From: Giardia intestinalis
Lineage: Eukaryota
Length of the DNA: 64,000 bases
Strand: one strand, 5' to 3'
NCBI GenBank assembly: GCA_000002435.2
Contig: CM018790.1
Shown piece after piece: positions 36,590-49,715 of the stretch. Made by a program: the position numbers and the translations under genes. The notes under the pieces were generated by a model, which saw only the letters and a program-made list of their open reading frames with translations, was not told where the DNA came from and made no database searches. Within the stretch, counting starts at the first letter, position 1, and every line of letters begins with the position of its first letter.

Positions 36590-36875
36590 CAGTGCTGTGC
36601 TGCCAGATTTACCTGCGGGTATGGTCTAGCAATCTTGTGGGTAAATTGTCGCTTAATTCCTAGCCAATCCGGAGACGACTGTTGGTCATTGATAACATAA
36701 CAAGAGGGTCCTCTCCAGTGATACATCCAGGGCCCGGTACATTTCTCTTCCGTTTCATGGGCGTGTGCTCTGTCTGGATGTGCACGTCAGCCTACCTAGG
36801 ATTCAACTTACTTGCCCATCTGCGTCGTCCACCAGTGATTTCTCTCCTTGGTCTACCGCTCTGATGGTGGAGGGT
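36590..36875 (+). repeat. Copy A of a diverged direct repeat of ~285 bp, roughly 65-75% identical by eye to copy B at 42062-42350.
   Basis: Matching blocks: GTGCTGCCAG/GTGCTACCGG; ccGGAGACgActgTTGGTcaTTGATaACATAACaAGaGG vs ccGGAGACaAaggTTGGTtgTGGATgATATAACgAGgAG; GTGTGCTCtGtCTGgaTGTGCAC vs GTGTGCTCaGCTGAgTGTGCAC; CaTCtgCGTCGTCCACCAGTG...CTCTCCTTGGTCT vs CATCGTCCACCAGTG...CTCTCCTTGGTCT. Confidence 0.55.
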
Positions 36876-37495: not shown

Positions 37496-39633
37496 TTACT
37501 CGGACAGGAGCTGGCAAGCCGACATTGTTGAAACAGAGTAGATCTCGTTTGGGAGGATGCCTACTATCTCCATGCGATCCTTCTTCTTAGCGATATTGAG
37601 GGCAGTGGTACCGGGCGAGTGACCATGGCAGCTGCAGGTTGTCTTCAGATCTTTCTCGTTTTCCTTAAGAAGTCTTGCACACTCCACGGTGTTACTATAT
37701 GCCGCACTCATAAGGGCGATCTCCCTTGGTCGTTTGCATGCCGCCTTCCTCCTTCATTAGGAGCCTGACGCACTCTGGATGATCATTGCACACCGTCCAT
37801 GTGAGGACAGTCTGATGCTCGTTGTTCCTTATGCCAGTCTCCTGCTCGAGTAGCTCTACGATTCCTTCGTGCCCTCGTGCTGCTGCATACATGAGCTCCG
37901 TCCACCCTGAGATACTGCTCTCATACTCCATCAAAAGCTCAACGTGCCCAATATAGTCCACCAGGGGGTCATTGGAACGGTCGCACCGTGCCGCGAATAC
38001 GAGAGCGGCCCAACCGCCTACTTTCTCTCCCTTTTCGTGCTCTGCTAGCAGTTCTACTATTTCTGCGTATCCATTGCCGCAGCCATCATCAGAGCTGTTC
38101 CTTTGCGCATGTACCATCCGCTTCTTGTGACCTCTTTGTATGTTTTCCTCCCCCTCTGGATGGGTAAGAGTGCTTTTACAGCCCCCGCGTCGTTTCTATT
38201 GACAGCTCGCATGAGCGCCGTGACGCCGTTCTCATCGGTTGGGTCGATGGCCTCCACCACGGTTCCATGTCCTGCCTCTGCCGCAATCACCAAGGCCGTC
38301 TTGCCTTCGCTGCCGATCCGGTCCTTCTCATATGGGACCAGAAGGGAGGCAGCTCTTGCATAGTCCTCCTCTGTGGCGATCATCAGGTAGTCCAGCCATT
38401 CTTGTCCTGGAGACCGTTCTCCTCCCCAACAAGCAACTCGACGGGACTGATGCGCCCCTGCTCGTCGCGCTGACCAACACCGAGTCTTTCTTCAAGCAGC
38501 ATCCAGACGGTCTCCGTGCTATTCGTATGCGCGGCACGCATCAGCCCGGGCAACAAAAAGAGGCTGGACTGAGGGTCAGTCGTGTTCATCCTGTCATCGA
38601 ACTGTGCAAGCTTATTCTCCAGTGCCTTAATCATAGCTAGATGTTCCTTGCACTGATCTTCAAGTGCGTCGATCTAGTGGATTTAGTCTTAACATCCTCT
38701 TCCAGCAGCGCGATCCTGGCGTTAGCGCCATTCAGCGCAGCCTCCAAGGATCTGCACCTGTACCTCAGCATCACGCACTGACCCCCCAGCTCACTAACTG
38801 GGATGTCGAATGTAGCGAGCGTCTCGTGCAGCTCCCTGGCCGTCGGCCTCCTTCCAGGATCCAGCACGAATATCCCCTCCAGAACATTCTGCATGAAGCC
38901 ATCAGTGACACCGCTCAGGTCCGGCCTCCATCCATCAACGAAGACCTCTGCTGGCTCCTTGCCCCCCAAGAAGTTTGGTCTCCTCAGAGTAGTAAGTTCA
39001 TAAATGATGACCCCGAGGCTCCACACGTCGGAAGCATGGCTGGTCTCATTACGGAGGAGAATCTCGGGGGCCATGTATACTGCCGTGCCTGCAATGGTGC
39101 TCCCGCATCTCAGGGCGTCCTTACAGAGGCCGAAGTCGGCGATGATGAAGTGTTCACCATCTGCGCTGACGAGGACGTTCGCAAGCTTGAGGTCGCGGTG
39201 GACGAGGCCCTTGTAGGGGCGACCGTCGGCACCCACTCCGCTGAGGCCGTGGAGGTAGGCGAGGGCGGCGGCGACCTGCTTCATGACAGAGAGGATCACA
39301 GCGATAGGGACGGGGATCTTCCTTCGTTTGTGCTCGGTGAGGAGGCGCTCAAGGGTCTTGTCGTGCCGGTCCGTGACGACGTAGATGAGGCCCTCGTCTT
39401 CAATCACTTGATGATACTTGAGGACCCGGGTGAAAGATGTTAAGAAGGGCGGCCAGCCTACGCTTAATAGCATCCACACCGTGCTGATCCAGACCGTCGA
39501 GCCGGATCTCCTTCACAGTGAGGTGGGGGCATCCCTTGGGAGAGTAGATAACACTGAAGGCCCCCGCTGAGCACGGGGATGCCACCAGCGCCCATCGGCT
39601 CTGCAAAGCCGCTAACTGCACTGTTACTAGCAA
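37496..39633 (-). pseudogene. Disrupted NEK-type protein kinase plus ankyrin-repeat gene. The kinase N-lobe, the catalytic core with a coiled coil, and at least four ankyrin-repeat segments lie in six different ORF fragments separated by at least five frameshifts or stops.
   Basis: Fragments 39400-39633 (…SAGAFSVIYS…VKEIRLDG…LNIFHP), 38637-39479 (VLKYHQVIEDEGLIYVVTDRH…HRDLKLANVLV…DFGLCK…YMAPE…coiled coil), and 38383-38634, 38057-38383, 37695-38117, 37496-37711 (ankyrin repeats). The frame changes at ~39425-39430 (a CCCGGG run), ~38640-38675, 38383, ~38057-38117 and ~37700. Confidence 0.55.
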
Positions 39634-40263
39634 CTCCTAGGGCGCCCTCTGCGGTGGCTGGGACAGGGAGTGGAGTCAACAGCCATCGCTAATCTTAACG
39701 CAATCCGGAGCCACCCTTTGGAGTGGCCTTGGCTACTGCCCGAGCAAGGCGCCCAGTGTGAGCTGCCGATGACAGGCCAAGGAGGGCATACTCGCGGCTC
39801 GTATGGTCCTAAGCAGGTCGGATTCTGGAGGCTAACACGGAGCGCCCCGACAAAACACGCCGACTGGGGACCACACTGAGCTCTGGATGCATCAATAGAG
39901 AGAAGCTCTTAGTATGTTATCCACAACCAGACCTCGTCTCCGGACGGCTGGGAAGTGAGCGCGGCTTACCCGTGGGACCTCTGAGCGCACCTGCAGGCGG
40001 CCCCAGCGATACAGTGACGGCAATGTACAGGAGTGCACCCCGAGCAATCACTCCACAAGAGAGGTGCGATTTGAGTCTGGCCCTCACTGGTCCTGTTCCT
40101 ATGGAAGTCAGAGAGAACTACACTATCAGCTGGCCTCCAGTGAGCGTGCTCCTATCTTGTCCTTCTTCAGTCCAACTGGTTAAGGGAGCAAGAGCAGCTG
40201 TCTCTCACTGCTCGCGGCAACACATCAGCCTGACAGAAGAGCAGTGGCATACTAACCCGGCTA

Positions 40264-42027
40264 ATGTTGGTAGGATTTCTCCTAGTTTGTGCAACAGTGC
40301 TGGCAAAGGACAGCGGGAAGGACACATGCTTCCCGGGATACACCCTCAACCCCACCACGAAGAAGTGCGACAGGAACTCCGCGCCGTGCGAGGTCGAGGG
40401 CTGTGATGTCTGCGAGGAAAGCAACCCCCAGCAGTGCAAGACGTGCGGCTCAGGCTACACCCTCAACCCCACCACGAAGAAGTGCGACAGGAACTCCGCG
40501 CCGTGCGAGGTCGAGGGCTGTGATGTCTGCGAGGAAAGCAACCCCCAGCAGTGCAAGACGTGCGGCTCAGGCTACACCCTCAACCCCACCACGAAGAAGT
40601 GCGACAGGAACTCCGCGCCGTGCGAGGTCGAGGGCTGTGATGTCTGCGAGGAAAGCAACCCCCAGCAGTGCAAGACGTGCGGCTCAGGCTACACCCTCAA
40701 CCCCACCACGAAGAAGTGCGACAGGAACTCCGCGCCGTGCGAGGTCGAGGGCTGTGATGTCTGCGAGGAAAGCAACCCCCAGCAGTGCAAGACGTGCGGC
40801 TCAGGCTACACCCTCAACCCCACCACGAAGAAGTGCGACAGGAACTCCGCGCCGTGCGAGGTCGAGGGCTGTGATGTCTGCGAGGAAAGCAACCCCCAGC
40901 AGTGCAAGACGTGCGGCTCAGGCTACACCCTCAACCCCACCACGAAGAAGTGCGACAGGAACTCCGCGCCGTGCGAGGTCGAGGGCTGTGATGTCTGCGA
41001 GGAAAGCAACCCCCAGCAGTGCAAGACGTGCGGCTCAGGCTACACCCTCAACCCCACCACGAAGAAGTGCGACAGGAACTCCGCGCCGTGCGATACTCCC
41101 AACTGCAAGGCCTGCGACAACCCCAAAACAGACAACGAAATCTGCACTGAATGTAATGATAACAATTATCTCACTCCAACCAGTCAGTGCGTATCTGACT
41201 GCACGACCCTCAAGGGCTACTACGGAGACGATAGTGGCAAAAAGACATGCAAGAGGTGCAACGATGCGTGCGCAGAGTGTAAGGGTGAGGGTGCTGATAA
41301 GTGTACGGCCTGCCCTGCTGGGAAGATGCTTCAGTATACAGATGCTGATACTCCTGCCAATGGGGGCACGTGCATGAACCAGTGCAGCGTGAGCCCTGCA
41401 AACGATGGATGCGCAGAGTGTGGGGCCCAAATAGGAGGAACTGCATATTGCTCAAAGTGCAAGAACACTCAACAGGCACCACTGGATGGCAACTGTGCGG
41501 CCAATACGCGAACACGATTTTGCACTACGGTGAGTAATGGAGCATGCACTCAATGTGAAAATAACTACTTCCTCAAAGATGGCGGTTGCTATCAAACAAA
41601 TAGACAGCCTGGTAAACAAGTGTGCACCCAAGCTAACGGAGGAAAGTGTCAGACATGTGCCAATGGCTTAGCAGCAACTGATGGCAACTGTGCAGAATGT
41701 CATCCTACTTGTGCTACGTGCTCGACTGCAGGTACGGCTGACAAGTGTAAGACCTGTGCCACTGGGTATTACAAGGAAAACGGTAGCGATACCACTACTG
41801 GGTTATGCAAGAAGTGCTCAGAGAAGATCTCTGGATGCAAGCAATGTGTGTCATCATCTGGCAGTTCAGTCATATGTTTAGAATCAGAAGTAGGCACTGG
41901 TGGAAGCGTCAACAAGAGCGGCCTCTCCACGGGGGCCATCGCGGGGATCTCCGTTGCTGTGATTGTTGTCGTCGGAGGGCTTGTCGGATTCCTTTGCTGG
42001 TGGTTCCTCTGCCGCGGGAAGGCGTAG
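40264..42027 (+). CDS. vsp: Variant-specific surface protein (VSP), 587 aa: signal peptide, six and a half identical 39-aa Cys-rich tandem repeats, a unique CXXC-rich region, a transmembrane helix and the invariant CRGKA tail.
   Basis: MLVGFLLVCATVLA signal peptide; many CXXC motifs; C-terminus …IAGISVAVIVVVGGLVGFLCWWFLCRGKA*. Confidence 0.9.
   Translation: MLVGFLLVCATVLAKDSGKDTCFPGYTLNPTTKKCDRNSAPCEVEGCDVCEESNPQQCKTCGSGYTLNPTTKKCDRNSAPCEVEGCDVCEESNPQQCKTCGSGYTLNPTTKKCDRNSAPCEVEGCDVCEESNPQQCKTCGSGYTLNPTTKKCDRNSAPCEVEGCDVCEESNPQQCKTCGSGYTLNPTTKKCDRNSAPCEVEGCDVCEESNPQQCKTCGSGYTLNPTTKKCDRNSAPCEVEGCDVCEESNPQQCKTCGSGYTLNPTTKKCDRNSAPCDTPNCKACDNPKTDNEICTECNDNNYLTPTSQCVSDCTTLKGYYGDDSGKKTCKRCNDACAECKGEGADKCTACPAGKMLQYTDADTPANGGTCMNQCSVSPANDGCAECGAQIGGTAYCSKCKNTQQAPLDGNCAANTRTRFCTTVSNGACTQCENNYFLKDGGCYQTNRQPGKQVCTQANGGKCQTCANGLAATDGNCAECHPTCATCSTAGTADKCKTCATGYYKENGSDTTTGLCKKCSEKISGCKQCVSSSGSSVICLESEVGTGGSVNKSGLSTGAIAGISVAVIVVVGGLVGFLCWWFLCRGKA
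40336..41091 (+). repeat. Perfect tandem repeat inside the VSP: a 117-bp unit (39 aa, GYTLNPTTKKCDRNSAPCEVEGCDVCEESNPQQCKTCGS) in six full copies plus a 54-bp partial seventh. Copies begin at 40336, 40453, 40570, 40687, 40804, 40921 and 41038.
   Basis: Read directly; the copies appear nucleotide-identical. Confidence 0.9.
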
Positions 42028-42042
42028 ACTTAGGTAGTAAAC
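42028..42042 (+). terminator. VSP extended polyadenylation element ACTTAGGTAGTAAAC, containing AGTAAAC at 42036-42042, immediately after the TAG stop.
   Basis: Sequence ...ggcgTAGACTTAGGTAGTAAACgcatt... matches the conserved VSP 3' motif ACTYAGRTAGTRAAY. Confidence 0.75.
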
Positions 42043-42061
42043 GCATTACTTTATGTAGCTT

Positions 42062-42350
42062 ATGTGGATGTGCTACCGGGTGCTTGTAGGTACGATCCAG
42101 AAATCTCACGAATAAATTCTCGCTCCTTTGGCCGTGTCCGGAGACAAAGGTTGGTTGTGGATGATATAACGAGGAGCTCCTCTCTTTTAGTATATCTAAA
42201 ACCTGGCACCTTCCCTGGTCGCTCCGCAGGGGTGTGCTCAGCTGAGTGTGCACACCCGGGAATGCTTGCTCAGTCGGCCTGGGATTCCGCTTACTCACCA
42301 TGTACATCGTCCACCAGTGGCGCCTCTCCTTGGTCTTCCTTCACGGTGGG
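42062..42350 (+). repeat. Copy B of the diverged direct repeat (see 36590-36875). It starts ~35 bp after the VSP polyA signal and is followed by ~430 bp of very GC-rich sequence with no ORF.
   Basis: Alignment blocks listed under copy A. Confidence 0.55.
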
Positions 42351-42977
42351 TGAAGCCCGGGTCGCCGTCTTTTTTAGATGCCCCGTCTGTCAGGGGCTGC
42401 CACCGGGCTCTCCGCTGGCTGGGCCCTCGGTGTCCGTCCGGCTGTGTCCCGGTCCAACTGGTGGGTAGAGGCAGGGGGATTGCTGGGGCAGTGAGGACCG
42501 AGTGGGTGGTGTCCATCTGTGCCCCTGGGCTCTCGGTGGGCCATTGGGGCGGTGGGTGATTCTCGCTCTGTTTGCTGCAGTGGTTGTGTCTGATCTCCAG
42601 CCCGCGCTGCACGAGATATAAGCCAGGCACCGACGATCACACTAGGTCCCTGGTCGTCCCTCTGCAAGAGTAGAGGGGAGCCCCTGTCTGCTGTCACAAC
42701 TACCCCACCCCCAGGCGGGTCCGGCAGCACCACAATGAAATCTTCAGCATGCACATTTTCTGCTCGTGTCATCGTAGTTTAGATTGTGCATATCTTAGTT
42801 ATACTAAACTCTACTTCATCAGCCACTAGAACTAGCATAGCTTGGAGCAGCGCTTATTTACTAACTATACTGATGTGTGCTTTACAGCTACACAGTAATC
42901 CACATAGAATACTAATCCATGTCAAGTTGCAAACTACTAAGGTTAGCGCTCATACTTCTTACGGTCCCTTCATGGCC

Positions 42978-45900
42978 TTAAATATCAGAACTGCCTGTGC
43001 TACACTGCCCAATTGATGTATTGCTACTTGTGACGCCAGAGGCTTTATTGACATGCATTGTGGATGGAACAGTGGATTGTATTGCTAACAGATTTGCCAA
43101 GGGAGCCGATTGGGCTATATCGGAAGCACTATGAGTGGAAGACGTATCTGAAATACTTGAAGGAGCCTTTGCTTCAACCACGTCTGTAGTTATCTTAATA
43201 GTTGATGTCTTTTTCCGTGAGTCTACATGTGATGGTGTAGACGGTGAGCTGGTATTTGATTCCGCTATGGGGTCGTCTAAATTCGCTGGTCTCTGGTCAG
43301 TACTATTGCCAAGAAAGCACAACTTTGGTATTATGGGGTGTGCACTCATTGTTTTCGACTGAAGATCTGTATCATCGTCGTCTTGGTTAACTAAGCGAAT
43401 GCGTGTGATTGGTGTCTTGATACCTGCGGACTCTTTCGGAAGGGACTGCAAATTTAGTGCAGGAATTACTAGAGGGCTCCGTGGAGAAGTGGGGCGCAGC
43501 TGTGGCTTAGCATCGCTACCCGCTGGAGTCCCTGTCGAAGTGCTACTTTCTCCTTTCACAGTGAAATCATTCCATCGCGTCAGTTCGTACTGGATTGATG
43601 CATTTATCCAATGCAGTGGAAGATTGATGCGCCCTATCAAGAGAGTCCTAAGTCTCCGCAAGAAGAGACCCCTGGGGAAGCTGGATTCCTGTTTGCTAAG
43701 AACACACGGGTCCCATGAAATATGGCGCCCATACCGGTAAAGAAAACAATAGTGTGCGGTTAGTAGTTGAATGCGGCACAGATTGAAGCCTTGCATATCC
43801 ACCTCAGGCCGTGTACACTTGCAACAACAGCACATATATTGTGAGGTCCCATGACCGATATCTGGAAAGATAGTAGGCGGGGGGTATGAGTATCTGTACT
43901 CTGGAGTAGAGCCGACTAACGACTCTTGCATGCTGTTAATAGGCTCGTCTGCAGAAAAGTGGAGCGTAGAAAGAGTAGGAGGACGGGCCTGTTGCTGTTG
44001 ATTGGATGGCGTAATTGTGCTGTTATTAGTAACAATACTTGTTGTGCGTAGCTTGCTTAAGGATCCTGTTGTACGAGTTTGGCGTTTATTACGCATTAGT
44101 ATGATATCTGAAGCATTCTGCTGGTCATCTTCATTGTAGGGCTCATAGTAGAAGCTGTTATTCCTACTCACTATACTATGTTCTCCGTGAGGTTCATCAT
44201 CGACATTGTCGTCATCGATAGTTGTGCAAATCGAGTCATCAAAGATGCTTGTAAGACCTCCTACATCCTTTAGCTCTTTGCGGATCTGAGACGCCACAAT
44301 ACAATCCTCCAAAGAGCGTGTAAACATCCTATCCCGATATAAAAAGCGTTGCTCAGCCCCCATATCCTTGAAAATCTCTGGATTCCCTGTTTCAGTCGAG
44401 CTTTCTCGTTCCTTAAGACTGGTCTGCTTCTGGTGTCCTTCTATTCCTGCGAGTATTTTGCCTATAGCTGTTCTATTGTATAACTTGTTCCGCTGGATAT
44501 ACTTGTCATTCAATGCGGAATCAAGGGGCTTCTCCGGTTGCTCATCAACTACGTCTTGCTCTCTTTCAGGCTTAATACTACCAGAGAGATCAACGCTCTT
44601 CTGAGACATAGCGCTACTTATTGAGGCTTCTTTTGCATCCAGTTCTCGTAGTACCGGCGAGCTCGGCTCTGGCCTGGCATGAAATTGTTGTTGTTGTTGT
44701 TGTTGTTGCTGTTGCTGTTGAGGCGATTGATTTGGTGTGGACTTAGTATTCCGCGTGGGAGAAAGCACGCAGCTTTGTGATGTAGCTAGAGTGGAGAACT
44801 GGAAGGCGTTTCCCGGTAAACTACGTGCAGACGGTCTCTGTGAAAACGCCTTTGACTTCACCTGATTATGATCTGCAAGTGGAGCAGAGGTCATACTGAT
44901 ATGTTCAATTTCAGAAATTTCTTGAATATCCAGTTTGATCCCTGAAAGCGTCTTTGTGGACAGAGGAGGGTTGGAGTACAAGGGGTTAGAGAGCGCCTTA
45001 ATCGGAACCGATGCAGACGATTTGTGTTCTGAGAACCCAGCAGTTAATTGATTGAACGGGGAGCTTGCGCGACTGCTTTCTAATGACTCAGTTAAAGAAG
45101 AGCTAGCACTTTGCGCACTAATGTCAGAGTGCTGAAGCATATGCGGTTGACTTTGCACTTCTGCCACGGGAAAAAGAGGCCCAGGCTGGAAACTATTAAT
45201 ATCATCTTTTAGATAGTATTCTACGTCTCTCTCATTGCCCAGGGTCTCTGAGAAAGACCTGGTAAGCATCTGATACCATAGTCGCGTTCCCAATTCATAA
45301 AAGGACGATCCTACCGTTAGCGTAGTTAATCCATCAATTACGTTTTGCAACTGCATTCGCTTAAGCTTTGCAATGATGCTTCTAAGCGTGGGGCACTTTC
45401 TGATGGTGTTGAGGGTCTCCTGATCATCCAAATCGAAAAACGAGTTGGCATTATGGGCGTTTCCGTGAAGCAGACGAAGAGAAAACTCGACAGCATTCTG
45501 GGAGCTCCCAATATAAACATCCAAAGGGGATATCTTTTCAGACCAATCAAAATTATGAATATGGAGAATATTTTTCTCATCGACAAGGGCGTGAAGTACA
45601 TTTTCAAAGGAGTCGGACAGTATGGAGTCAAGGGTGTTCGACTCAGGTCCCTGTGAGCCATTCCCAGCCACACCATACTCTTGTCTCATAGAGGCATAAG
45701 CGTCGAGAAGAGGATGCTCAAAGCGGGCCGTGCTTTTGCTATCCAGTGAGGACACCCGCAAGTCGGGAGCTGAGAGAGAAACCTTGAGCGGTGGCGCAGA
45801 AGAGATTGGAGCCTGTTCGTGGGTTAGACTGCGCTGATATTTCTTGAGAAGCTTCTTGATGTAGTTGAAAATATGCTTACGACGGGGATAGAGGGATGCA

Positions 45901-48900
45901 GCCGACGACGCTTCAGCGACGAATTTCGAAGAATTAATAATCGACAGCAGTTGCTTGCTCCTTGTTCGTTCATTCAAAACAGGCGACGGAAGCCTGTATA
46001 GTAAGCTATCGGGGCTTCCATCATATAGTGATTCTGAGAGTACCCGTTCCAACAACGTTTTGACATGACGTGCCTCGTCCATTAGAGATACCGAGTTGCG
46101 CCTCACATTATCAGTGTGGAAAGTCGGCGAGGCTTTGGAGACCGTTTTCCGGTGTTCAAATATCCGGTCAACCATACAAATACCTGTGGATTTTCTGACC
46201 ACGTGTGCCTGTGCAATCTCAGGCACAGTAATATATACCGACTTATTAAACTCTGTGTCCGACAATAAATCAGATTGCCCTTCAGAGTCGAGACTAAAGG
46301 ACATGTGCCTGTTCAGAACATCACTGCTACTCATTGGACTCTTCGCTCTATTCTTTGAGCACAGCTCTGTTTTTGTTTTAAGCTTTTCTGAAGCGATGAT
46401 GTGGGCATGAGTATTAATCTTCTCCCCACTGGTAAAGTCATCTATGCGGTAACCTGTATGATTGAGCACATCATGTTTGGACTTTCTAAATAGCTTAGAA
46501 GAGAAGAGGGCCAGTGTGTTAGCCAGCAGAGGAATATCGGTGCACGTATAGATCATACTGTTGTCAATGGTGCTTGCAGTGATACACTTGCTATTATTAG
46601 CCAGCACGTATTGTCTGCGGCGCATAATTATCAGCATGTGAAACCGTCGGAGCTGATGGTAGTCTCTCTTCGCTTCTCTCCACAACGCACGGATGTTCCC
46701 AGACTTACTGGTCGCTACGGAGTGTGCGTGAGACAAAACAGAGTGCATCGTCGTTACACTGATGTCCGAAGTCCCCTTTGCCGGAATGCTCATTGGCAGC
46801 TTAAATTGTCTTGGATTGACAGCAGGATGATACATGCATTCAAACAGCGTGTATCTGTGACTTGGAATCTCGTCTAGAAGACCACACAGCAAGTCGGTAA
46901 TCAGCAATCCAAAGGTTCCACAGAGAGCAAAGGCTTCTTGGCTATACCTGTACAGAGGGGTTCGTCTGACCAAGCCTGTGAGTGAATGAAAAAGCATAAC
47001 TCCTGTTTGCCAAGCGTCTGCATGTACAGCTGAAAACAGGGAATGAGCCCTGTGTGGGTCGTGGTCACTACACGTCTGCATAACAGCGCGAGACTCGGGA
47101 GAAAGAATAGTCGGAGTCCCTGTGGAACTGCTAATAAAGTAGGTATTCCTTGGCATAGCCGGAAACGTGTTGATCTGTCTAATAGATGAGAGGTAGGATT
47201 GTAGTGCCTGCCCAACCTTGTTAGTCTCTATCGTCTCCTGAATGAAGTCTTCAATGCGGCTGATAGTGGAGAGAAGCGCAGCGTCTCGTTGTGACAGTGA
47301 GCTATTTGAAGTCTTAATTGAGCAATCAATGGCTGGCACCAACAAGGAGTTGTCAGCAGGGAAATCTGCGTCTAGATGGGTATGACCTTTGCATGTTTTC
47401 TCTGCAAGTCCAGTTCCATCGGGTGTTAAGTCAGTCAATTTCAAGCTCAGCGCGTCAGTGTGAAAAGCTTTTTGGAAGGTTGCCGCATGCGAATCATCGT
47501 CGAGCAAAGGAATGTCTACACAAGGCTCTAAGTTGCCTAAAAAGGCGTCCTTTTGGTCATCCAAGGAAAGAACCAGAGTAAGGCAAGAAGAGTGAAGCGC
47601 TCTTGTCACAGAACTTTTGTCACTAGTACGTGCAATATGAGCCGTATCAATGCTTGCATTGGGCTTTGCAGCAGTAACTGTTGCTTGTCGTAAGCTGAGA
47701 GTAGTATCCTTGCATGAAGAGTTGTTTGGTTTAATACTTATTTTGTCAAAAATAGGCTCCGACATATCAAATGATTGTGTCTCGTAGATTCCAGACATCC
47801 TGCATATCCCTATACTTCCATTAAGGGTGTCCATATCTATTTGTGAGGGCTTCAAAGACTGCTGTGAGTCGTCCAGCTTAGCTGCCTCAGTGCATATGGC
47901 AGTGCCCTCTTTGACTAAGATGTCAGCATTGAAGCTAAAGGCCGACGAAACTAAGTCGGCCTCTCTCCTAGATGAAGCATGCACACAGTCAGAATCCATA
48001 GAGGCTACTACATCATGACCCAACAAAAGGCTGCCTTCGTCTTCTTGTGGTAAAATACGTTGCCGCACAAGGTCATTAAAAAAGCATGTAAAGCTCTTGC
48101 GAAGAAGAGAAAGGTGTCTATTGTATATGCTTTTTAGTGTCTCTAGGACGGTCTGTGCTGTTGGTAGTCTGACCCCCTCTTCCTCGAGGATGATTGCAGT
48201 ATCAAAGTCACTGATCTTTGCACGGTAGGGTGCAGTATCCGAGTCCCCTAACAGATAGTACGTTATATCTGATGACTCTTTTAGTGATTGAAGTCTGTAC
48301 CGAGATCCGCTTGGAAGCAGCAAAGGAGAAAGAACGTTGTCATTGAGGCGAGAGGATATACGTGTAGGCCCTCTGGGCATAACAGTGGGCGGATTGGCGG
48401 CGGTTGGTAGTGCATTTTGTAAAGGAAGCTTCAAAGAAAGTGGGGGTATATTGTACCTATCTTTAGGGTCCCTCCTCAGCGTATTCTCAATTGGGTTGCT
48501 ATGAGATGGATCACTACTCAGAGCAGTACTTGCCAAGGGAGTGCTGGACTGAGATTGTACGGTCCCAACTGCAAAGTCACCTATTGTGCCTGAGGTGCTA
48601 GTAAAGAACAGGTCGGTCGTTCTGGGGACCTTCCGTGGAAGTAGCTTACTTGCAGGAGGTATCGGTGTCTTGAAATTGCTTTGAAGATCGGTGGTGATGA
48701 TGATGTTCTCTAATTTGATATCTTGGTGTACAACGTTGCAGAAGTGCATGTAGCAGAGAGCATCGACAACCTGATAGAAGAGTATCATGATCTTCTTTAG
48801 ATCTGCTGTGCGTACAACCTCCTGGAGGGTCCCCCCGTCACAGTACTCTATTATGAAAACGAAGTTATCATCATAGTTCATGGTGCACCGACCTGTGTTC

Positions 48901-49715
48901 TGATAGCGTGGAGTCAGGTTGGAGTCCAATTGGGAGCTACGGGCCGAGTATTGTTTGAGCTTACTGCCAGCCGATGGCATACGTCTATGGGCAAGCTCCG
49001 ATCCCTGGGTCAATGGTTTAGCAATACCATTAAGAGCCATCGGATTGTGCAAAAGAGGCTGCAAATCGGAGACAAGCTCTGGTTGTAGCATCCCCTTGGC
49101 GTTTGAGAGTTGATCAATAATAGATTGATACTTGCAGGGAAGCTCACATATCAGGTTGACCTGCTGTGCAATAGACAGGATTGTCTGAACCCACGGGGGC
49201 AAGCTTCCCGGTGTTACGGCGTACTGACCGGCAAACGTAGAACCAGGAATTAGGGACTCCATAGAGTTCTCCACAGAGCAAACATCAGCGTAAATAGGGT
49301 GATGCATCACCTCAATGAGGTTAAGAATAGATGGGTGTGCGGTGGTCAAGAAATCCATGACCCGGGAGCAATTCCAAAGGAATTTGTCCGCAGATTCCTG
49401 GGTTAAGAGCTTACGCCTCAGAGAAGTTCGGTTGATCATGCGCATGGCTGCTTTTTGCTCTGTAAGCGGGTTATGGCATAGTCTCACGTTGGCATAGGCA
49501 CCCCGACCGATTGTTCTCTGTATGATCCACTCGTTAATGCACACGTTCCCCTGGGCTGTCGTTGTAACCCAGATCCGATCCTTGACTGGAACTCGAAGCA
49601 GTCCTGGCAGAAATGGAGCAGAGATGCCTGTCAAAAGGTGGAAGACGCCTGTCGCTGACTCTGACGTACTAGATGTGCTGTCAGTACTTGCATGGTTCAC
49701 TTCATGCAAGGCCAT
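42978..49715 (-). CDS. Large protein of 2,245 aa with an N-terminal protein-kinase-like domain split by long insertions (probable pseudokinase or very divergent kinase), a polyQ tract, and a long low-complexity C-terminus.
   Basis: Subdomains I-II IGRGAYANV…KAAMRMI (the beta-3 Lys is Arg), HPSILNLIEVM, a ~200-aa insert, FVFIIEYCDGGTL, VHQDIKLENIII (HRD replaced by HQD), a ~170-aa insert, ISDFDTAII (DFG replaced by DFD), DAWQTGVMLFHSLTG, and PSHRYTLFECMYHPAV. Confidence 0.6.
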   Translation of the reverse strand: MALHEVNHASTDSTSSTSESATGVFHLLTGISAPFLPGLLRVPVKDRIWVTTTAQGNVCINEWIIQRTIGRGAYANVRLCHNPLTEQKAAMRMINRTSLRRKLLTQESADKFLWNCSRVMDFLTTAHPSILNLIEVMHHPIYADVCSVENSMESLIPGSTFAGQYAVTPGSLPPWVQTILSIAQQVNLICELPCKYQSIIDQLSNAKGMLQPELVSDLQPLLHNPMALNGIAKPLTQGSELAHRRMPSAGSKLKQYSARSSQLDSNLTPRYQNTGRCTMNYDDNFVFIIEYCDGGTLQEVVRTADLKKIMILFYQVVDALCYMHFCNVVHQDIKLENIIITTDLQSNFKTPIPPASKLLPRKVPRTTDLFFTSTSGTIGDFAVGTVQSQSSTPLASTALSSDPSHSNPIENTLRRDPKDRYNIPPLSLKLPLQNALPTAANPPTVMPRGPTRISSRLNDNVLSPLLLPSGSRYRLQSLKESSDITYYLLGDSDTAPYRAKISDFDTAIILEEEGVRLPTAQTVLETLKSIYNRHLSLLRKSFTCFFNDLVRQRILPQEDEGSLLLGHDVVASMDSDCVHASSRREADLVSSAFSFNADILVKEGTAICTEAAKLDDSQQSLKPSQIDMDTLNGSIGICRMSGIYETQSFDMSEPIFDKISIKPNNSSCKDTTLSLRQATVTAAKPNASIDTAHIARTSDKSSVTRALHSSCLTLVLSLDDQKDAFLGNLEPCVDIPLLDDDSHAATFQKAFHTDALSLKLTDLTPDGTGLAEKTCKGHTHLDADFPADNSLLVPAIDCSIKTSNSSLSQRDAALLSTISRIEDFIQETIETNKVGQALQSYLSSIRQINTFPAMPRNTYFISSSTGTPTILSPESRAVMQTCSDHDPHRAHSLFSAVHADAWQTGVMLFHSLTGLVRRTPLYRYSQEAFALCGTFGLLITDLLCGLLDEIPSHRYTLFECMYHPAVNPRQFKLPMSIPAKGTSDISVTTMHSVLSHAHSVATSKSGNIRALWREAKRDYHQLRRFHMLIIMRRRQYVLANNSKCITASTIDNSMIYTCTDIPLLANTLALFSSKLFRKSKHDVLNHTGYRIDDFTSGEKINTHAHIIASEKLKTKTELCSKNRAKSPMSSSDVLNRHMSFSLDSEGQSDLLSDTEFNKSVYITVPEIAQAHVVRKSTGICMVDRIFEHRKTVSKASPTFHTDNVRRNSVSLMDEARHVKTLLERVLSESLYDGSPDSLLYRLPSPVLNERTRSKQLLSIINSSKFVAEASSAASLYPRRKHIFNYIKKLLKKYQRSLTHEQAPISSAPPLKVSLSAPDLRVSSLDSKSTARFEHPLLDAYASMRQEYGVAGNGSQGPESNTLDSILSDSFENVLHALVDEKNILHIHNFDWSEKISPLDVYIGSSQNAVEFSLRLLHGNAHNANSFFDLDDQETLNTIRKCPTLRSIIAKLKRMQLQNVIDGLTTLTVGSSFYELGTRLWYQMLTRSFSETLGNERDVEYYLKDDINSFQPGPLFPVAEVQSQPHMLQHSDISAQSASSSLTESLESSRASSPFNQLTAGFSEHKSSASVPIKALSNPLYSNPPLSTKTLSGIKLDIQEISEIEHISMTSAPLADHNQVKSKAFSQRPSARSLPGNAFQFSTLATSQSCVLSPTRNTKSTPNQSPQQQQQQQQQQQQFHARPEPSSPVLRELDAKEASISSAMSQKSVDLSGSIKPEREQDVVDEQPEKPLDSALNDKYIQRNKLYNRTAIGKILAGIEGHQKQTSLKERESSTETGNPEIFKDMGAEQRFLYRDRMFTRSLEDCIVASQIRKELKDVGGLTSIFDDSICTTIDDDNVDDEPHGEHSIVSRNNSFYYEPYNEDDQQNASDIILMRNKRQTRTTGSLSKLRTTSIVTNNSTITPSNQQQQARPPTLSTLHFSADEPINSMQESLVGSTPEYRYSYPPPTIFPDIGHGTSQYMCCCCKCTRPEVDMQGFNLCRIQLLTAHYCFLYRYGRHISWDPCVLSKQESSFPRGLFLRRLRTLLIGRINLPLHWINASIQYELTRWNDFTVKGESSTSTGTPAGSDAKPQLRPTSPRSPLVIPALNLQSLPKESAGIKTPITRIRLVNQDDDDTDLQSKTMSAHPIIPKLCFLGNSTDQRPANLDDPIAESNTSSPSTPSHVDSRKKTSTIKITTDVVEAKAPSSISDTSSTHSASDIAQSAPLANLLAIQSTVPSTMHVNKASGVTSSNTSIGQCSTGSSDI
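44686..44721 (-). repeat. (CAA/CAG)n microsatellite, read as (TTG)n on the plus strand, encoding a ~12-residue polyglutamine run in the kinase-like protein.
   Basis: ttgttgttgttgttgttgttgctgttgctgttg; the protein has QQQQQQQQQQQQ. Confidence 0.7.

Follow-up and report, generated by a model that had tools for sequence, protein, structure and literature searches.

In the 64-kb stretch of Giardia intestinalis DNA analysed here (hereafter the window), the VSP gene vsp101 carries a nucleotide-perfect tandem array whose 117-bp unit encodes a cysteine-rich module. The explanation that best covers the whole of our results, and to which we assign a probability of about 0.88, is that this is the module array of a catalogued VSP, that it is kept uniform by recombination, that it presents a repeated epitope, and that the gene belongs to a modular subfamily.

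We located the array with Tandem Repeats Finder, which returned, over 38–44 kb, a single array at 40339..41093 with a period of 117, 6.5 copies, 100% matches, 0% indels and a score of 1510. A direct positional test agreed: w[i]==w[i+117] holds for one unbroken run of 638 positions, a length that rules out chance as the source of the array. The repeat tract, on the plus strand, measures 755 bp or 6.45 copies: six whole units followed by a partial one of 53 nt, each identical to unit 1. The preliminary description of this DNA had spoken of six and a half nucleotide-perfect copies of 117 bp, and with zero mismatches by either method that description was accurate. Its coordinates, 40336-41091, were shifted by 3 and 2 nt relative to the exact borders; GGA at 40336-40338 lies outside the exact periodic stretch. 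No other long tandem array is present in the 64-kb window. The array begins in frame 0 of the open reading frame 40264..42027, and 117 nt equal 39 codons, so every copy yields the same 39 amino acids, YTLNPTTKKCDRNSAPCEVEGCDVCEESNPQQCKTCGSG. Directly upstream, the codons for DTCFPG (40321..40338, plus strand) resemble those of the unit end KTCGSG, a likeness that suggests the array has degenerate edges; set by hand against the final 18 nt of the unit, these codons gave 10 identities, which constitutes weak evidence.

The reading frame that contains the array (40264..42027, plus strand) encodes 587 amino acids followed by a stop codon. Its product matches the Pfam VSP family (PF03302) at 292.7 bits, the cut-off being 31.4 (E 5.4e-87), and ends in a CRGKA tail, results that bear out the earlier assignment of the gene to the VSPs. 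At every residue, the protein is identical to XP_001706212.1 / KAE8302259.1 / A8BLZ5 from Giardia intestinalis WB clone C6, which identifies the gene as vsp101 (GL50803_115047). It contains 79 cysteines (13.5%, within the 11-14% or so usual for VSP ectodomains), 26 CXXC motifs and a GGCY motif at residue 440. An initiator-like TAATGTT, read directly from the sequence at 40262..40268 on the plus strand, spans the ATG at 40264 and equals the Inr entry for vsp101 in Adam 2010. The protein opens with a hydrophobic leader and putative signal peptide, MLVGFLLVCATVLAK (40264..40308, plus strand), an assignment that draws on a predicted helix and on the sharing of this leader, with a presumed cleavage site; the leader sequence MLVGFLLVCATVLA is common to other VSPs and is predicted to be helical. 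In our AlphaFold model a helix occupies residues 2-15, after which confidence is low. Beyond the array, sequence comparison delimits a non-repetitive, cysteine-rich ectodomain stalk that includes the GGCY motif (41094..41934, plus strand), and the model together with an alignment of 45 VSPs places a transmembrane helix and the CRGKA cytoplasmic tail at 41935..42024 on the same strand (CRGKA at 42010..42024). Residues 558-583, AIAGISVAVIVVVGGLVGFLCWWFLC, are modelled as a helix, CRGKA comprises residues 583-587, and the transmembrane and CRGKA columns are nearly invariant in the 45-VSP alignment. The coding sequence is followed by a conserved VSP 3' element, ACTTAGGTAGTAAACGC (42028..42044, plus strand), which holds the polyadenylation signal AGTAAA (42036..42041) nine nucleotides past the stop codon; the 17 nt of ACTTAGGTAGTAAACGC are 100% identical directly after the stop in four VSP genes (P15 and GCA_000498715.1).

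The gene, its repeat period and its copy number were published in 2010, and the array is both already known and typical of its family. Adam et al. (BMC Genomics 11:424, PMC2996952, Additional file 1) list vsp101 as GL50803_115047, clade II, chromosome 2, complete, with the entries TR117, 117 nt per repeat, 6 repeats and Inr TAATGTT, and with a product of 587 aa, 61.5 kDa, 79 Cys, 13.5% and 26 CXXC. Every computable number in that entry was reproduced here, and the catalogued gene and the gene in the window are one and the same, with no difference between them. There the copy number is rounded from 6.45 to 6, and neither the module structure nor the base composition is given. As a discovery the array carries little weight, vsp101 having been listed in 2010 and tandem arrays having been recognised in roughly a quarter of WB VSPs: 30 WB vsp genes were reported to have tandem repeats of 105-516 bp in 2 to >20 copies (PMC2996952), and a re-analysis of the chromosome-scale assembly counted 36 of 136 VSPs with tandem repeats (bioRxiv 10.1101/2022.03.07.483299). 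The vsp101 array, 117 bp × 6.45 in frame 0, falls within the 105-516 bp range of these repeat-containing VSPs. We found no expression or antibody data for vsp101 in the literature. With regard to the switching, mutually exclusive surface expression that marks VSPs, the gene appears there through indirect mentions only: a change on microarrays when Topo II was manipulated, and its enrichment in a yeast-display screen.

Each unit contains six cysteines and two CXXC motifs (CDVC and CKTC). In an AlphaFold2 model built on the 45-VSP alignment (mean pLDDT 81.6), four beta-strands forming two hairpins are predicted per unit, and this pattern recurs at exactly 39-residue spacing; model confidence dips in the 10-residue blocks that hold the CDRNSAPC linker. 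A sequence search of the PDB returned no chain matching vsp101 and no VSP structure. Foldseek produced weak matches only, to EGF-like and furin-like disulfide-rich repeats, with E values from 7e-6 to 0.1, TM-scores of 0.06-0.44 and rmsd above 10 Å. The matched proteins, which include the EGF arrays of LRP2, Fu1-Fu2 of R-spondin, the cysteine-rich domains of EGFR, and Pfs25, consist of small disulfide-rich beta-hairpin modules in a row, as the vsp101 array is predicted to do, a resemblance of fold class and not of family membership. Given these weak matches and the lack of a match in the PDB, we go no further than to call the unit a small disulfide-rich hairpin module. On the predicted fold, one 117-bp unit corresponds to one self-contained 39-aa cysteine module. 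Since the unit is both a multiple of three nucleotides and a single module, adding or removing whole units leaves frame and cysteine pattern intact, and would change only the length of the ectodomain and the copy count of one epitope. The array occupies the entire variable N-terminal region of the protein, which is the membrane-distal half of the VSP ectodomain.

Comparison with related proteins places this array within a recurrent architecture. The 311-aa part that follows it, comprising the stalk, membrane anchor and CRGKA, shares 72-82% of its residues with the C-terminal part of at least 10 other VSPs with unrelated N-termini. At the other end, O97448 (P0006) has exactly the same leader, MLVGFLLVCATVLAKDSGKD, as far as residue 20, and P0003 and P0005 have nearly the same one. 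These comparisons with WB paralogues were made at the protein level. O97448, a 645-aa "cysteine-rich protein", has the same leader, then a perfect array of 76 aa × 4.2, then the same stalk junction; P0003, a WB "VSP with INR" of 445 aa, has a near-identical leader, a perfect array of 37 aa × 3.0 and the same stalk. In both, the stalk is 77-80% identical to that of vsp101 and starts at the same C(N/D)TPNCKxCDNPKTDNE junction, whereas their arrays have neither sequence nor period in common with the 39 aa × 6.45 of vsp101. P0005 combines a leader and stalk of the vsp101 type without an array. At the DNA level, reading of the VSPs in GCA_000498715.1 indicated that the sequence just past their differing arrays is nearly identical to window positions 41096-41180. 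The sharing of leader and stalk around differing arrays makes vsp101 a member of a modular subfamily, in which an exchangeable N-terminal region, often a tandem array, lies between a common leader and a common stalk.

Perfection of the repeats is likewise shared. Peptide-perfect tandem runs occur in 18 of the 123 proteins that we retrieved, almost all of which are VSP homologues and among which the query is counted. The VSP arrays of P15 and GCA_000498715.1 have 99-100% DNA identity between copies, and across all arrays inspected as DNA (P15, GCA_000498715.1 and one ENA contig) copies are 96-100% identical. Nucleotide-perfect copies are thus the rule in the VSP family and not peculiar to vsp101. 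The best-studied parallels are vspA6 (CRP170, vsp67) and vspC5 (vsp90), which, as described in PMC2996952, have a short leader, an in-frame array and a conserved C-terminus, as vsp101 does, and in which the repeats form most of the exposed region. According to the same article, their units of 195 bp and 105 bp, respectively, are present in >20 copies, and they are unrelated in sequence to the vsp101 unit. It also reports experiments on vspA6 in which its 195-bp repeat proved immunodominant, and experimental evidence of allelic copy-number variation in vspA6 and vspC5, for those two genes only.

We propose that the vsp101 array arose and stays uniform through out-of-register recombination or replication slippage between copies. 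Such events could proceed by unequal exchange between sister chromatids or between alleles, or by gene conversion, and the degenerate edges of the array may be leftovers of this process of copy exchange. The repeats would then form a reiterated and probably immunodominant surface epitope, by analogy with the 195-bp repeat of vspA6. By standard inference, identical copies point either to recent expansion or to ongoing homogenisation, two alternatives that one genome cannot separate. One very recent burst of duplication, after which homogenisation ceased and the copy number stayed fixed and not polymorphic, would agree with the equal copy number at vsp101 in the two WB assemblies, with the absence of "115047" from the searched text of the structural-variant tables of PMC7048089, and with the reported high similarity of sub-assemblage AI genomes, among which a comparison of Be-2 with WB-C6 (PMC11169602) describes overall conservation of VSP positions and gives no per-gene data. 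Yet perfect or 99% identical arrays recur in many VSPs from three assemblages or sub-assemblages, a distribution that a continuing process accommodates more easily than many coincident recent bursts, and the allelic copy-number variation documented for vspA6 and vspC5 (PMC2996952) also runs counter to a fixed array; we regard a lone burst as rather unlikely. The same analogy with vspA6 and vspC5 makes copy-number polymorphism of vsp101 between isolates plausible. We found no orthologue bearing the vsp101 repeat in other comparable isolates.

The unit itself differs in base composition from its surroundings. The array reaches a GC3 of 0.90, against 0.56 for the leader and 0.51 for the stalk. 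Within the stalk, 39-codon windows rise to 0.79 at most, and the other genes in the window range from 0.46 to 0.79. Within the protein, the best internal match of the unit is the adjacent stalk module (APCDTPNCKACDNPKTDNEICTEC...YLTPT), with a score of 59. Shuffled sequences scored 40.3 +/- 5.8 with a maximum of 58 (500 shuffles), and the corresponding DNA aligns poorly. We rejected a recent duplication of this module as the source of the unit, given a score marginally above that of shuffles, the poor DNA alignment and the strong difference in GC3; the sharp contrast of the unit (0.90) with leader (0.56) and stalk (0.51) itself indicates that it is not a recent copy of the adjacent module.

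An origin from outside the gene would be compatible with upkeep by recombination: the unit may have been imported as a cassette from a GC3-rich VSP, by recombination between the common leader and the common stalk, and then amplified. The successive steps in GC3 (0.56 to 0.90 to 0.51, with no comparably rich stalk window) are as such a transfer would leave them, paralogues with the same leader and stalk bear unrelated arrays at the same position, the near-identity of post-array DNA in the GCA_000498715.1 VSPs to 41096-41180 persists despite their differing arrays, and recombination among vsp genes has been reported (PMC2996952). In addition, an unrelated small VSP encoded on a metagenome contig in ENA (ERZ27287554 k141_331631, L001; the protein is P0123) has a homologous unit, and 67 of the 117 columns in the alignment are invariant. 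This protein was the single relative recovered when three units were searched against 5.8 billion protein clusters, a search in which the query's own cluster was represented by a 167-aa repeat-less fragment and in which clustering can hide members. Beyond P0123 we found no protein with a unit homologous to that of vsp101; amino acid identity between the two is 53%, and the DNA of P0123 shares GGTCGAGGGCTGTG and AACCCCAC.ACGAAGAAGTGCG with the vsp101 unit. Like vsp101, P0123 is tandemly repeated and GC3-rich; it differs in having a 108-bp period, 1.9 copies at 96% identity, and a length of 149 aa without a long stalk. An exact 55-mer across the unit junction had no match in metagenome contigs. 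No donor gene with the vsp101 unit was found in the search of protein clusters, which weighs against import. The high GC3 may instead reflect GC-biased conversion within the array, or may be general to VSP modules at the N-terminus: of two controls without repeats, one gave 0.72 against 0.58. On balance, we hold import of a cassette to be a possibility, and a tentative one.

In the two non-repeat relatives that served as controls, GC3 of the N-terminal region and stalk was 0.63 vs 0.63 in one and 0.72 vs 0.58 in the other, so that part of the effect may belong to N-terminal modules generally. With a similar N-terminal excess in one of the two controls, we discarded the GC3 excess as proof of biased conversion. 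It is suggestive of cassette import or GC-biased conversion, without being decisive. In eight of the eight VSP genes examined, arrays were richer in GC3 than their own stalks (mean 0.82 vs 0.59, Wilcoxon p = 0.008), and vsp101, at 0.90 vs 0.51, was the most extreme example among the VSP arrays examined. The broader proposition, that VSP arrays generally carry a GC3 of 0.7-0.93, well above that of their own stalk, and that GC-biased conversion during homogenisation could be the cause, strikes us as doubtful. Whether Giardia undergoes sexual or parasexual recombination is still debated. Were the proposition true, the GC3 signature would provide a sequence-only read-out of recombination activity. 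The GC3 step at array borders (8/8) offers an inexpensive way to look for GC-biased conversion across the whole Giardia genome.

Perfect repeats are a classic substrate for collapse during assembly, and Adam et al. 2010 warned that repeat copy numbers in the 2007 assembly are approximate and possibly condensed (PMC2996952); the array or its copy number could in principle be an artefact of repeat collapse or expansion. Against this, the array is only 755 bp long and easily spanned by PacBio reads, and the catalogue table, which goes back to the 2007 Sanger assembly, and a contig of 1,539,535 bp both give the identical 587-aa protein. The largest contig of the 2007 assembly is 870 kb (PMC2996952), so the longer contig must come from the PacBio chromosome-scale assembly AACB03. 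The agreement of the Sanger and PacBio assemblies on 587 aa makes an artefact very improbable. The preliminary description had named nucleotide differences between copies and misassembly as grounds for doubt: we found zero differences between copies, and the concurrence of two independent assemblies makes misassembly unlikely. The locus offers a clean, short, PCR-sized candidate marker of copy number for sub-assemblage AI isolates and for the alleles of the tetraploid. A six-fold reiterated epitope on one VSP would also be relevant if that protein were used in VSP-based vaccines or serology.

The repeat tract is also open in a second frame. An overlapping ORF at 40289..41377 on the plus strand, in the +1 frame, runs for 362 aa from a GTG, which the ORF tool accepted as a start under bacterial rules, or for 323 aa if the first ATG, at 40406, is taken instead; it covers the array and 284 nt beyond. 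Its length and the presence of an in-frame ATG in each unit are what one would cite for a real protein. However, the unit simply lacks a stop codon in the +1 frame, as expected at a GC3 of 0.90, and the ORF exists for that reason; the translation has a low-complexity composition rich in R/P/S/T/A that is dictated by the VSP frame, it matched no Pfam family, and it lies wholly within a gene whose own frame is very strongly supported by its match to the VSP family. That it encodes a protein is scarcely credible, and the earlier view of the ORF as spurious stands.

The gene is solitary, with flanks of 784 bp and 950 bp that contain no convincing ORFs; a Pfam search of four overlapping or flanking ORFs and an Rfam search of 38000-43500 gave no match. 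A decayed NEK-type gene occupies the minus strand upstream of vsp101; its kinase domain starts only at profile position 58, its N-lobe is found in another frame just upstream, and ankyrin fragments occur in several frames downstream. The VSP thus lies between this frameshifted NEK gene and a gene for a kinase of 2245 aa. Finally, a 53-nt inverted repeat brackets vsp101, and a third copy, which is longer, is present near 36.65-36.86 kb.

We compared vsp101 (GL50803_115047) with three paralogous VSPs, P0003, P0005, and O97448 (P0006), and this delimited two plus-strand segments common to the subfamily: window positions 40264-40323, which encode the 20-aa leader, and positions 41094-42024, which encode the cysteine-rich stalk with the membrane anchor and CRGKA tail. 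The leader is identical or nearly so in all three paralogues, and their stalks share 77-82% identity with that of vsp101. What lies between these segments differs. O97448 carries the vsp101-type leader and stalk but an array of its own, comprising 4.2 copies of a 76-aa unit; P0003 likewise retains both ends but bears 3.0 copies of a 37-aa unit; and P0005 joins the same leader and stalk without any array. Because the leader and stalk are common to proteins with differing arrays or none, the comparison of these sequences suggests that an N-terminal cassette has been swapped between fixed ends in the vsp101 subfamily.

The array is also set apart by its codon composition. Within the vsp101 coding region (40264-42024), GC3 is 0.90 in the array, compared with 0.56 in the leader and 0.51 in the stalk, and it changes abruptly at the array borders. 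Extending this analysis to array-bearing VSP genes from isolates WB and P15, assembly GCA_000498715.1, and one ENA contig (vsp101 compared with loci L001-L009), we found that array GC3 exceeded stalk GC3 in each of the eight genes examined, with means of 0.82 versus 0.59 (Wilcoxon p = 0.008). Two control VSPs lacking repeats gave GC3 values of 0.63/0.63 and 0.72/0.58.

A search of 5.8 billion protein clusters with the vsp101 repeat yielded a single relative of the unit, a very small VSP of 149 aa encoded at positions 521-970 of a metagenome assembly contig (L001; ENA ERZ27287554, contig k141_331631), in which 1.9 copies of a 108-bp repeat are homologous to the 117-bp unit of vsp101. The cluster to which vsp101 itself belongs was absent from the results of this repeat-only search, since the representative of the 90%-identity cluster containing the 587-aa protein is a 167-aa C-terminal fragment (XP_001704785.1, annotated "VSP, putative") that lacks the vsp101 repeats. 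Other repeat-bearing relatives could be hidden likewise behind repeat-free cluster representatives.

The vsp101 gene is bracketed by a 53-nt inverted repeat (39894-39945 and 42136-42188; 79% identity, pairwise E 1e-7), whose copies lie 318 nt ahead of the ATG and 109 nt past the stop codon. A third, longer copy, consisting of two blocks with 75-76% identity, occupies intergenic positions 36650-36857 and is oriented like the copy downstream of the gene. Approximately 200 nt upstream of the start codon is a 30-mer, TCCACAAGAGAGGTGCGATTTGAGTCTGGC (40052-40081), that is 90% identical to positions 274-303 of locus L004, the single match (E 8e-6) in a small search. Its counterpart is found about equally far upstream of a P15 VSP gene, and the 30-mer may represent a conserved upstream element.

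Both flanks (39000-40100 and 42200-42700) are GC rich, at 58-66% versus 48.8% for the whole window; Pfam and Rfam searches of the non-coding stretches flanking the gene returned no match. The downstream flank contains no convincing ORF, and the upstream flank includes, up to position 39479, part of a decayed NEK-type kinase that adjoins vsp101 on the minus strand (37496-39650). The Pkinase match of its ORF (38637-39479) begins only at profile position 58, the kinase N-lobe (…GAFSVIYSPKGCPHLTVKEIRLDGL…) is found just upstream in a different frame, and ankyrin-repeat fragments are spread over several frames at 37496-38383. This locus either is a pseudogene or contains several frameshift errors.

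In a metronidazole fitness screen based on yeast surface display, GL50803_115047 ranked fourth among the enriched proteins (PMC10187560). CRP136, another repeat-bearing VSP, was once tied to a metronidazole-resistant line (PMC5355454).

Elsewhere in the window, a minus-strand gene (42978-49715) encodes a 2245-aa kinase-domain protein containing a polyglutamine tract, QQQQQQQQQQQQ, encoded at 44685-44720, where the plus strand reads (TTG)12.
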